This document shows, piece after piece, positions 1,342-40,441 of a stretch of 64,000 nt of DNA; within the stretch, counting starts at the first letter, position 1; the number at the start of each line of letters is the position of its first letter. The notes under the pieces were generated by a model. It had not been told where the DNA came from, made no database searches, and worked only from the letters and a program-made list of their open reading frames with translations. This DNA comes from Escherichia coli. Lineage in GTDB: Bacteria > Pseudomonadota > Gammaproteobacteria > Enterobacterales > Enterobacteriaceae. The stretch lies in assembly GCF_048403405.1 (NCBI RefSeq), contig NZ_CP183129.1, one strand, 5' to 3'. The position numbers and the translations under genes were made by a program.

Positions 1342-2478
1342 TCATGAAGGCCCGCAGCCAGCAAGGATTAGAGAAAGGTATTCATTCTTACGTCCTGCCC
1401 GCTTTTGCTTGCGTTTAATACCCGCTTTAAAGCTATTCTCTGCGGTCAGTAAATTCATCGCGATATGTCGACAAACTGCCAGATTTTCTCCCGCTTCTCC
1501 ACGAACAATCTGGCATTCATCTTCCCGCATCCCCATATCAAGTCGCCAGTGCAGTTGATTTTCTACCGACCAGTGTGCTCGTGTTGCTTCCAGGAGTTCT
1601 TTCGCCGTAAGCGTCACCGAACTTATGTAGTAGCGAAGAATACACTTCTCTGATTTCACCGCTGTTTCTCCTTCCTGTCTGCTCGCCAGCACTATTCCTA
1701 TCGTGCTCAGCTCTGACCATTCATAAGCTAAATCACCCAGAGCGGTTAAATCATGGCTCACAATGCAGCATCGTGTATCTTCCCGTCCATGCCCTTTTTC
1801 CTGCGTGCTGTAACTGTCATACCTCTCACCCAGCCACATTGTCGGCGAGTACCCGTTATCAAACGCCTCCGCTAATTTTCCCTGATTTCCTTTCAGCGCC
1901 AGCAGGTAACCGGCTTTCTTTTTCAGAATTTCACGGGCGATTATATGCTGGCAACCCATTGCATCCAGCGTGACCAGACACCCTTTTAATTCCAGCAACT
2001 GGAGCCGTTCCGGGATCGCCGTTATCTCATTCGATTTTGCCCCTGTTTTCACCTGCCCCAAAACCAGACGATTTTCTGCGCTAAAAGCACTGACCCTATG
2101 GATCACGGCATTACGTTTCGATTTATCGTAAGTACCCCGTAATGACTTACCATCAATCGCCACAACAGAGCCTTCAGACAACGTGTGACAGTCCTTCATC
2201 TACTGGATAAAAAGGGGCTGTAATTGTTTTGCTGAAATCATTCCCATCACTCGGGCAATCGTGTGATGGGAGGGGGTGCCATTTTCAAAATCACCATACA
2301 GGCGTAACCATTCCAGATGCTCCTCACCAAAATCAGCAATTTCTTCCCATCCTTCAGCGCCACCGATAATGGCGGTGATCGTCAGAAAAAGGATATCCGC
2401 CAGGCTGTAACTGGTTTTCCAGGACTGGCGATAATCGTGAATAATTGAAATTTGATCCAAAAGGCTTAGTCCGTTCAT
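1342..2478 (-). pseudogene. ISAs1-family (H-repeat-associated) transposase interrupted by in-frame amber codon
   Basis: Track ORFs 2200..2478 (92 aa) and 1342..2199 (285 aa) are in the same frame, separated only by TAG at 2200-2202; the stop sits where H-rpt homologues have Trp (..FI[NQ]WMRDCH..), so TGG->TAG. Confidence 0.8.
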
Positions 2479-2888
2479 GGTGTGCTATCCATCAAAAAGA
2501 AAGGATAAGATCACACTGAAATAAGATGGTCAAATTGATCGAAAAAAAGATCAACATGATGGGTTTTACGATAAAAGTAATGTCGCGATTTAAAAATTCA
2601 TCATTCACCAAAGTCTTGTGGGGCGCGGGCTTTCATGCTTTTTCCCTGATACGCTACCGCTCTGCCCTGATAACATGATCTGCACGGCGCTATCATATCG
2701 ACATATTTCTCTACATGCGAAAGGATGTTTTATTTTCGGATTATATTAAATTGATATTTCATATAAAAAACGAGATTACATAAATCATATAAATAATTGT
2801 ACCAACTTTAATTACCATTCATAGCAAACAAATGGATGTCCAGTTAACTACGCCAGTGATTTATTAACATTAATCTCCGGCATTATTG

Positions 2889-3495
2889 TTAAATAATGGC
2901 ATTCCTTTTTAGTATTTCTTGTAACGTTGGTATCGGACATACAGCATCAGCAATCGCACTGATATTCGCGGCATTATCTTGAAACCATTCATGCCCCGGT
3001 CCCCATATGCGCATAACGCAGAGATAAGGGTAGCTGATCGCCAAACGCATAAGGTTCAGCAGTGAGCTACGAATTCAACCAGATATAAAACGATTTTCGA
3101 TATTCAATAACATTCTTCTTTAACTGTTCGGGTGCGTCAGGAGCCCAACGCTCAGGGTAATCGGCGAAAGTGAATGTTGGATAGACATTAGCAACCAGCC
3201 AGACCAATAGCCGTTGAAACTGCTGACGTTCGGCGCGCCCAACCGGTGGCGCAAGGTCCGGGCGACGATCGAGAACCATCAATGCAATCGCCGCTGTCTC
3301 CGTCATAATCTCGTCATTTTCCAGCGCCAGTGTCGGAATCTGACACAACGGGTTCAGGGTTTTCAATAACTCGCGTGAGGTTCCCTCGTGGTCAAAACCA
3401 CTGACATCAACGAACTGATAAGGAATATCAGCCAGTGTTAGCATCAGCTCACTGATTGTAGAGCCCCATCCGGGTACGCCATACACCTTAATCAT
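2889..3495 (-). pseudogene. yncG: glutathione S-transferase-like protein YncG, disrupted (nonsense plus frameshift)
   Basis: ORF 3067..3495 gives GST N-domain MIKVYGVPGWGSTISELMLTLADIPYQF... then TAG at 3067-3069 where K-12 has Gln; downstream LTAEPYAFG..WGPGHEWFQDN..LKRNAII still readable but needs a frame change. Confidence 0.75.
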
Positions 3496-8958: not shown

Positions 8959-9417
8959 ATGGGGAACGAAAAGAGCTTAGCGCACACCCGATGGAACTGT
9001 AAATATCACATAGTTTTTGCGCCAAAATACCGAAGACAGGTGTTCTACAGAGAGAAGCGTAGAGCAATAGGCAGTATTTTGAGAAAGCTGTGTGAGTGGA
9101 AAAGTGTACGGATTCTGGAAGCTGAATGCTGTGCAGATCATATCCATATGCTTGTGGAGATCCCGCCCAAAATGAGCGTATCCGGCTTTATGGGATATCT
9201 GAAAGGGAAAAGCAGTCTGATGCTTTACGAGCAGTTTGGTGATTTGAAATTCAAATACAGGAACAGGGAGTTCTGGTGCAGAGGGTACTACGTCGATACG
9301 GTGGGTAAGAACACGGCGAAGATACAGGATTACATAAAGCACCAGCTTGAAGAGGATAAAATGGGAGAGCAGTTATCGATTCCCTATCCGGGCAGCCCGT
9401 TTACGGGCCGTAAGTAA
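8959..9417 (+). CDS. tnpA: IS200 transposase TnpA (Y1 HUH transposase)
   Basis: Track ORF 8908..9417 trimmed to ATG 8959: MGNEKSLAHTRWNCKYHIVFAPKYRR...; HxH motif (HIHML) and catalytic Tyr region (RGYYVDTVG); 152 aa. Confidence 0.9.
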   Translation: MGNEKSLAHTRWNCKYHIVFAPKYRRQVFYREKRRAIGSILRKLCEWKSVRILEAECCADHIHMLVEIPPKMSVSGFMGYLKGKSSLMLYEQFGDLKFKYRNREFWCRGYYVDTVGKNTAKIQDYIKHQLEEDKMGEQLSIPYPGSPFTGRK

Positions 9418-36611: not shown

Positions 36612-37133
36612 ATGTCAAAGCCAAAATACCCTTTTGAAAAGCGCCTTGAAGTCGTGAATCACTACTTCACAACTGATGATGGTTACAGGATCATCTCGGC
36701 ACGTTTTGGTGTCCCCCGAACCCAGGTCAGGACATGGGTTGCCCTCTATGAAAAACATGGAGAAAAAGGTTTAATTCCCAAACCTAAAGGCGTTAGTGCT
36801 GATCCAGAGTTGCGTATTAAGGTCGTGAAAGCTGTGATCGAGCAGCACATGTCCCTTAATCAGGCTGCTGCTCACTTTATGCTTGCTGGTAGTGGTTCTG
36901 TAGCCAGGTGGCTGAAGGTCTATGAAGAGCGCGGAGAAGCTGGTTTACGCGCGCTCAAGATTGGCACCAAAAGAAACATTGCAATATCAGTTGATCCAGA
37001 AAAAGCGGCATCAGCATTGGAGCTGTCAAAAGACCGACGCATTGAGGATCTTGAAAGGCAAGTTCGATTTCTTGAAACGCGGCTTATGTATCTAAAAAAG
37101 CTGAAAGCCTTAGCTCATCCCACGAAAAAGTAA
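36612..37133 (+). CDS. insJ: IS150 OrfA (InsJ), HTH DNA-binding protein
   Basis: 173 aa MSKPKYPFEKRLEVVNHYFTTDDGYRIISARFGVPRTQVRTWV..; slippery heptamer A_AAA_AAG at 37094-37100 near its 3' end. Confidence 0.9.
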   Translation: MSKPKYPFEKRLEVVNHYFTTDDGYRIISARFGVPRTQVRTWVALYEKHGEKGLIPKPKGVSADPELRIKVVKAVIEQHMSLNQAAAHFMLAGSGSVARWLKVYEERGEAGLRALKIGTKRNIAISVDPEKAASALELSKDRRIEDLERQVRFLETRLMYLKKLKALAHPTKK

Positions 37134-37981
37134 AAGTACTCAACGAGCTAAGGCAGTTTTATCCTCTTGATGAGCTTCTCAGGGCTGCGGAGATACCGCG
37201 CAGTACGTTTTATTACCATCTAAAGGCTCTCAGCAAGCCTGACAAGTATGCGGACGTTAAAAAGCGTATTGGTGAGATTTATCACGAGAATAGAGGCCGA
37301 TACGGATACCGTAGGGTAACGCTGTCTCTTCATCGAGAAGGGAAACAGATTAACCATAAAGCTGTTCAGCGCCTGATGGGAACCCTCTCACTTAAAGCAG
37401 CGATTAAGGTCAAGCGATACCGCTCTTACAGAGGAGAGGTAGGGCAAACCGCCCCTAATGTTCTCCAAAGAGATTTCAAGGCTACGCGGCCAAACGAGAA
37501 GTGGGTTACCGATGTTACTGAATTTGCAGTCAATGGGCGCAAGCTGTATTTGTCTCCAGTAATAGATCTCTTCAACAACGAAGTTATTTCTTACAGCCTT
37601 TCGGAAAGACCAGTGATGAACATGGTTGAGAATATGCTCGATCAGGCATTCAAAAAGCTTAATCCTCACGAGCATCCTGTTCTGCACTCTGACCAGGGAT
37701 GGCAGTATCGTATGAGAAGATATCAAAATATCCTTAAAGAACATGGTATTAAACAAAGCATGTCCAGAAAAGGCAATTGTCTGGATAATGCTGTGGTGGA
37801 GTGTTTCTTTGGAACCTTAAAGTCGGAGTGTTTTTATCTTGATGAGTTCAGTAATATAAGCGAACTGAAGGATGCTGTTACGGAATATATTGAATACTAC
37901 AACAGCAGAAGAATTAGCCTGAAATTAAAAGGTCTGACTCCAATTGAATATCGGAATCAGACCTATATGCCTCGTGTTTAA
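37130..37981 (+). CDS. insK: IS150 OrfB (InsK), DDE transposase; made as OrfAB fusion by -1 frameshift
   Basis: Open -1 frame from the slippery site to 37981 (..[60 protein letters not shown]..); the track shows only the part after the first Met (37376). Confidence 0.8.
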
Positions 37982-39439: not shown

Positions 39440-40441
39440 ATGAGTAAAGTTGGTATTAATGGTTTTGGTCGTATCGGTCGACTGGTGTTGCGTCGATTAC
39501 TTGAAGTCAAAAGCAACATAGACATTGTTGCTATTAATGATCTCACTTCCCCAAAAATTCTCGCCTACCTGTTGAAACATGATTCAAACTACGGACCGTT
39601 CCCCTGGAGCGTTGATTTTACGGAAGATTCACTTATCGTTGATGGAAAAAGTATCGCGGTTTACGCCGAAAAAGAGGCTAAAAATATTCCGTGGAAAGCG
39701 AAAGGCGCAGAAATCATTGTCGAATGTACTGGCTTTTATACCTCCGCCGAGAAATCGCAGGCGCATCTTGATGCTGGTGCGAAGAAGGTGTTGATTTCCG
39801 CCCCTGCCGGTGAAATGAAAACCATCGTTTATAACGTCAATGACGACACACTGGATGGCAACGACACCATTGTTTCCGTGGCGTCATGCACCACTAATTG
39901 TCTTGCACCGATGGCCAAAGCCTTGCACGACAGTTTCGGAATAGAAGTCGGCACGATGACGACCATTCATGCCTATACCGGCACTCAGTCACTGGTGGAT
40001 GGCCCGCGTGGTAAAGATCTACGCGCTTCACGTGCAGCGGCAGAAAATATCATTCCCCACACTACGGGGGCGGCAAAAGCCATTGGTCTGGTGATCCCAG
40101 AACTGAGCGGCAAACTGAAAGGTCATGCACAACGCGTACCCGTGAAAACCGGTTCGGTGACTGAACTGGTGTCTATTCTTGGAAAAAAAGTGACTGCCGA
40201 AGAGGTGAACAACGCGCTTAAAAACGCGACAAACAATAACGAGTCATTTGGTTATACCGATGAAGAAATAGTCTCTTCCGATATCATTGGCAGCCATTTC
40301 GGTTCGGTGTTTGATGCCACGCAAACCGAAATTACCGCCGTGGGCGATTTACAACTGGTGAAAACGGTCGCCTGGTACGATAACGAATATGGCTTCGTCA
40401 CGCAGCTTATTCGCACCCTCGAAAAATTCGCTAAACTCTGA
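39440..40441 (+). CDS. gapC: glyceraldehyde-3-phosphate dehydrogenase GapC, full length
   Basis: 333 aa uninterrupted ORF with NAD-binding INGFGRIGR and active-site SCTTNCLAP; good Shine-Dalgarno (AGGAGAA) before ATG 39440. Confidence 0.9.

Follow-up and report, generated by a model that had tools for sequence, protein, structure and literature searches.

We found that positions 2889-3495 on the minus strand of the window (the whole 64,000-nucleotide stretch of Escherichia coli DNA analysed here) almost certainly hold a non-functional remnant of yncG, which arose by a deletion and then a stop codon, has been inherited clonally and continues to decay in some carriers. The region was read on both strands, its open reading frames were tabulated and it was translated in three frames; the features are listed in Table 1. 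The 5′ reading frame starts with an ATG at 3495, and its translation, MIKVYGVPGWGST...SFYIWLNS, stops at the TAG at 3069-3067. Past this TAG, the three-frame translation shows that the same frame reads LTAEPYAFGDQLPLSLRYAHMGTGA* and that the similarity to YncG is gone. The C-terminal sequence of YncG (...WGPGHEWFQDNAANISAIADAV...KRNAII*) is found only in another frame that ends at 2889; the C-terminal part in this second frame reads ...MRIWGPGHEWFQDNAANISAIADAVCPIPTLQEILKRNAII*, with the normal stop codon at 2889-2891. The offset between the two reading frames is 445 nt, and since 445 mod 3 = 1, a frame change is needed to pass from one to the other.

Table 1. Features of the yncG remnant and its downstream flank (window coordinates).
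Feature	Position	Strand	Remarks
yncG pseudogene, whole	2889..3495	-	607 nt, compared with 618 nt when intact; from alignment to K-12, MS1050 and PT62, and PGAP
5′ remnant ORF, 142 codons	3070..3495	-	the whole GST N-terminal (thioredoxin-like) domain and the alpha-helical C-domain up to about its midpoint
Premature TAG, codon 143	3067..3069	-	CAG or CAA in intact alleles; plus strand CTA; changed base is 3069
Junction of net 11-nt deletion	~3026..3032	-	relative to intact alleles; about 30 nt downstream of the TAG
3′ remnant	2889..3025	-	in the shifted frame only; approximately YncG residues 161-205 plus the original stop codon
Flank downstream of yncG, common to other alleles	2649..2888		ends of blastn blocks; six changes private to the window allele

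Megablast showed that 4,616 of 5,426 complete E. coli genomes match the region, which is annotated as yncG throughout, while no yncG match was found in the other 810. Nucleotide identity to yncG was 88-94% in more than 4,500 genomes, with full-length alignments that extend the homology to the whole gene. The annotation of identical and related genomes places the same neighbours around the remnant as around yncG of K-12, with ansP divergent upstream, followed by yncE and pqqU. The synteny is thus that of a yncG orthologue, bordering a variable Rhs/T6SS island in divergent orientation to ansP, and the listing of Jackson et al. (PMC2935791) contains an Rhs locus flanked by yncG (Rhs locus 6). The K-12 gene (b1454; WP_000598857.1, a putative glutathione S-transferase of 205 aa) has the same chromosomal position as the window copy, both being divergent from ansP and followed by the Rhs region, and it is 93.9% identical to our 681-nt query across the first 640 nt. 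The ansP neighbour, the alignments and the genome annotation therefore bear out the gene name given in the preliminary description. Within residues 1-91, K-12 YncG and the window copy differ by two amino acids. Unlike K-12, the window copy has the TAG at codon 143 and the net 11-nt deletion at codons 156-160, and further non-synonymous changes relative to K-12 are L136F, E153D, T167I, Q191P, K194T and V198I. Downstream of yncG lies yncH in K-12, whereas in the window an ISAs1 pseudogene lies beside an Rhs core gene. This ISAs1-family (H-repeat) transposase gene (1342-2478, minus strand) has an internal stop at 2199/2200 that leaves reading frames of 285 aa and 92 aa; it sits directly downstream of yncG and before the Rhs core gene (1-920), and PGAP lists it as a pseudogene in identical genomes.

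The preliminary description, made from the letters of the window, held that a CAG to TAG change at 3067-3069 limits the product to 142 aa, that the C-terminal sequence can be read only after a frame change, and that alignment with intact yncG would reveal this. When the window was aligned with K-12, MS1050 and PT62, both lesions were seen: the reading frames and the intact 618-nt alleles confirmed the nonsense codon and the 142-aa product, and the three-frame translation together with an 11-nt gap in the alignment confirmed the frame change. At the deletion junction, the PT62 sequence CAGCTAACCCTGGTGGACTGTTATC has become CAGCTACCCTTATC in the window allele, which strips codons T156-L157-V158-D159 and shifts the frame. 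Two deletions, of 1 nt and 10 nt, would account for the loss without any substitution; a single 11-nt deletion would do so equally well if two bases were also substituted. No convincing direct repeat for slippage was found at the deletion, where microhomology amounts to just a 1-nt ambiguity (T) at the 10-nt junction. When the 11 nt and the C of codon 143 were put back into the window allele, it encoded a 205-aa protein that aligns to YncG throughout.

One might suppose that the gene is really intact and that errors of sequencing or assembly account for the TAG and the frameshift, given that indels are a common type of error in long-read assemblies; nothing else was found in favour of this reading. 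What is seen, a substitution together with an 11-nt gap in sequence without repeats, does not have the form of a homopolymer error, and the same 3′ segment recurs in 141 complete genomes that were sequenced independently, by many laboratories and from many hosts. A sequencing artefact was thus ruled out by 141 complete genomes with the matching segment, and its probability is negligible. An intact frame on re-sequencing was to have overturned the preliminary description; instead, the 141 assemblies are concordant. Disabling lesions relative to intact orthologues are therefore reproduced in independent assemblies, as is characteristic of a pseudogene. It could also be argued that full-length YncG is still made by programmed recoding, with stop-codon read-through followed by ribosomal frameshifting. 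Nothing speaks in favour of this: two separate events would be needed, and the 11 nt that encode a conserved motif would still be missing; in addition, other lineages break yncG at unrelated sites, and the intact alleles need no recoding. We regard programmed recoding as extremely improbable.

We compared the 142-aa product with intact YncG using Pfam. GST_N_2 scored 34.3 bits in both proteins alike, and GST_N_3 and GST_N differed between them by no more than 0.2 bits. In the 142-aa product these three domains cover residues 2-79, all above their gathering cut-offs, and GST_N domains alone were detected, while intact YncG showed a sub-threshold match to GST_C_2 at residues 135-162. The near-unchanged scores agree with the earlier statement that the GST N-domain is intact. 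With respect to the GST_N plus GST_C architecture, the 142-aa product contains the N-terminal thioredoxin-like domain, but a complete alpha-helical C-terminal domain in one frame (~205 codons) is absent, owing to the stop at codon 143 and the net loss of 11 nt. The missing residues 143-205 form the last third of the C-domain, and the truncation cuts through the middle of that domain rather than falling at a domain boundary.

The nearest solved structures are the beta-class GSTs P. mirabilis GST B1-1 (1PMT) and E. coli Gst (1A0F), which are distant paralogues. They align over residues 3-201 of intact YncG, with E-values of 5.5e-13 and 3.9e-11, respectively, and the window copy lacks the C-terminal third that aligns in both. 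Since the solved homologues align over residues 3-201, residues 143-205 are integral to the GST fold. The T-x-x-D motif at the start of alpha-6 is TVAD in 1PMT and TLVD in intact YncG, where G-E-Q-L-T-L-V-D-C-Y-L aligns with G-D-H-F-T-V-A-D-A-Y-L of 1PMT. We take the TLVD of YncG (T156-D159) to be the S/T-x-x-D motif conserved among GSTs, which caps helix alpha-6 of the C-domain at its start and is important for folding. As judged from the alignments, the 142-aa fragment, which lacks residues 143-205 and helices alpha-6 to alpha-8, would be unable to form a normal GST fold or a substrate-binding (H) site. Because there are two independent disabling lesions, we infer that YncG function has probably been lost.

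The dead allele is not confined to one strain. At an identity of 99% or more, the 216-nt 3′ segment occurs in 141 of the 5,426 complete E. coli genomes, and 141 genomes carry at least 80% of the first 12 kb of the window, a haplotype that comprises the Rhs core, the ISAs1 pseudogene, the yncG remnant, ansP, yncE, pqqU and onward. Two of the approximately 141 carriers, 28Eco12 and 266917_2, are described as ST38 in a published paper (PMC6963479), from which the ST38 assignment is taken. The yncG remnant is already annotated publicly as a pseudogene: in 100%-identical genomes, PGAP marks the equivalent of 2889-3495 as "frameshifted; internal stop". CA897_RS12350 of CFSAN061763 and H7R47_RS12750 of WP9-S17-ESBL-11 are 100% identical to the window allele with like coordinates, and are thus the same allele. 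Across these roughly 141 complete genomes, ST38 strains among them, the dead allele has very probably been passed on clonally, along with the ISAs1/Rhs island next to it. The preliminary description had the gene decaying in this strain; the decay is confirmed but reaches further, the allele being fixed across a lineage of about 141 genomes, ST38 strains included.

Related alleles indicate the order of the lesions. Among the matches listed, five genomes were one base closer by identity score to the intact PT62 allele, and two of these sequences were fetched and compared. GMF054 differs from the window allele by a single base, having CAG instead of TAG, and keeps the deletion and the other substitutions; accordingly, PGAP annotates its copy as "frameshifted" only. 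Since GMF054 has the deletion with CAG still present, the frameshift is the older lesion and the nonsense codon the younger. A nonsense-only intermediate (TAG with the 11 nt retained) was not found among the matches listed. These alleles are most economically read as a deletion followed by a nonsense mutation in a gene that was already dead. Decay has continued in relatives of the window allele. In AF40 the 3′ end is broken in the same way and codon 143 is CAG; its 5′ half is of another, PT62-like type, and 7 bp more are deleted at codons 132-134. In 21AH007, an IS3 insertion splits the window allele further.

The 3′ end of yncG is much more divergent than the 5′ end. Compared with MS1050, the window allele has 4 differences in the 426 positions of the 5′ part and 31 in the 182 of the 3′ part. 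Its nearest 3′ relative is PT62, with 9-10 differences in the last 182 nt; the PT62-type intact allele was found in 10 genomes among the matches listed, and an intact copy with the window-specific 3′ changes was absent from these matches. When private changes of the window allele were scored against four other alleles over 2.65 kb, nearly all lay within 3090-2661. One was found in the upstream 2.2 kb; codons 1-135 have none, and the ansP-yncG intergenic region is unchanged. The private changes of the intact MS1050 and K-12 alleles crowd into the same 3′ zone. Homology to PT62, MS1050 and MS1170 stops at 2649, 240 bp past the yncG stop codon, where the variable Rhs/ISAs1 island starts. Beyond this point, MS1050 and MS1170 carry T6SS PAAR/VgrG genes, PT62 carries small hypothetical genes, and K-12 carries yncH-rhsE. 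Because the intact alleles share the clustering and homology ends at 2649, the 3′ end of yncG belongs to a border zone that is prone to recombination, next to the Rhs island, and most of the additional 3′ divergence is a property of this zone. The broken 3′ end of AF40 together with its different 5′ half likewise indicates recombination within yncG. Uniform decay in situ as the sole cause of the 3′ divergence was ruled out by the 3′ clustering in the intact alleles and by the AF40 mosaic.

We also asked how the changes divide between non-synonymous and synonymous sites. Relative to the nearest intact allele, codons 136-205 show 7 non-synonymous changes, the stop among them, and 2 synonymous ones, compared with 7:15, 9:21 and 8:18 over the whole gene in pairs of intact alleles (Fisher p = 0.02-0.04); this contrast involves just 9 changes, sets codons 136-205 against the whole gene, and uses intact-allele comparisons that are not independent of one another. 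The excess of non-synonymous changes fits relaxed constraint, with small numbers. The ratio, the 7-bp deletion of AF40 and the IS3 insertion of 21AH007 are all features of relaxed constraint and continued decay.

These observations bear on the reading that the locus is shortened but not dead, the 142-aa product being a retained, functional stand-alone protein. The 142-codon frame and its upstream region are identical in 141 genomes, with no private substitution in codons 1-135, and the N-domain scores are essentially unchanged. However, the carriers are closely related, as the single private change in the upstream 2.2 kb indicates, and a stretch of 400 nt should then hold about 0.2 private changes, so that zero is uninformative on selection; because the lineage is young and clonal, the absence of private changes in codons 1-135 says nothing about selection. 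In addition, the lesions of AF40 and 21AH007 fall inside the 142-codon frame, the older form of the allele (GMF054) would give a different, frameshifted tail, and the truncation point lies away from a domain boundary. A retained stand-alone protein is thus very unlikely. There is an equally slim chance that the fragment is expressed from the unchanged ansP-yncG promoter region and has been kept in the ST38-type lineage with a new function, in which case it would be a small thioredoxin-fold protein with a role unlike that of full-length YncG.

The preferred reading, a non-functional remnant, can be set out as a sequence of events. Intact yncG encodes a beta-class-like glutathione S-transferase homologue. 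In an ancestor of the lineage, the gene lost a net 11 nt in codons 156-160, and with them the T-L-V-D cap and the reading frame; a later C to T change made codon 143, until then CAG, a TAG. Since then, the maximum translatable product has been the 142-aa fragment with a complete N-domain and without residues 143-205. The dead allele was passed on clonally with the ISAs1/Rhs island, decaying further in some carriers.

Inactivation of yncG has also occurred elsewhere. In the MS1170 type, yncG likewise carries a frameshifted annotation, but this copy of the gene was inactivated independently: the frame shifts upstream, near codon 58, 1 nt is deleted near codon 179, and both the TAG at codon 143 and the 11-nt deletion are lacking. 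The MS1170 type and the window allele have two 3′ substitutions in common (T167I and GGG>GGA), and the downstream island of MS1170, with its T6SS PAAR/VgrG genes, differs from that of the window. The MS1170-type segment, which is 1 nt shorter, was found in at least 13 genomes among the matches listed. Because of the independent lesions and the 810 of 5,426 genomes that have no match, we conclude that yncG is dispensable and has been lost repeatedly in E. coli.

Several other features of the window were noted. An IS200C-type tnpA lies between pqqU and mcbR (8959-9417), according to the annotation of WP9-S17-ESBL-11. This genome and the window agree in every base up to 16919; from ~16920 onward there are dense substitutions, and overall identity is 99.17% over 49.4 kb, which suggests a recombination boundary in or near ydcT/ydcS at ~16920. 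A 7.1-kb segment between azoR and pdxI (49365-56470), with reading frames of 463, 585, 298, 203 and 770 aa, is missing from WP9-S17-ESBL-11. These reading frames may be the counterparts of ynbA-D and ydbD of K-12; if so, the difference is a deletion in WP9-S17-ESBL-11 and not an insertion in the window. An intact 333-codon frame at 39440-40441 (plus strand) is annotated in a related genome as a type I glyceraldehyde-3-phosphate dehydrogenase ('gap'). We take its K-12 counterpart to be gapC, a pseudogene; a gap gene intact here and dead in K-12 would be the reverse of the yncG situation. Beside hokB, at 36612-37981 (plus strand), are two reading frames that a related genome annotates as an IS150-like IS3-family transposase with a programmed frameshift.

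What is known of intact yncG comes from an H2O2 screen (PMC8228696), in which its overexpression led to a five-fold higher H2O2 MIC. As a rule, knocking out a candidate gene made the cells slightly more sensitive to H2O2, with a highly significant effect for the katE knockout only, and the Keio yncG knockout had a weak H2O2 phenotype (PMC8228696). According to a study as cited in that paper, YncG had no GSH-dependent activity in a cell-free system. The weak knockout effect and the lack of GSH-dependent activity fit a gene whose loss is easily tolerated, and the loss of yncG was probably tolerated because the gene is dispensable. The yncG pseudogene is an ordinary, lineage-wide case that matters little, YncG being a protein without an established biochemical function, and could at best mark the lineage of ST38-type strains. 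The pseudogene offers a small example of how genes edging a variable Rhs/T6SS island gather recombination mosaics and lesions, and the ordered lesions (the deletion, the nonsense codon, then a further deletion or an IS in sub-lineages) could serve as phylogenetic characters.
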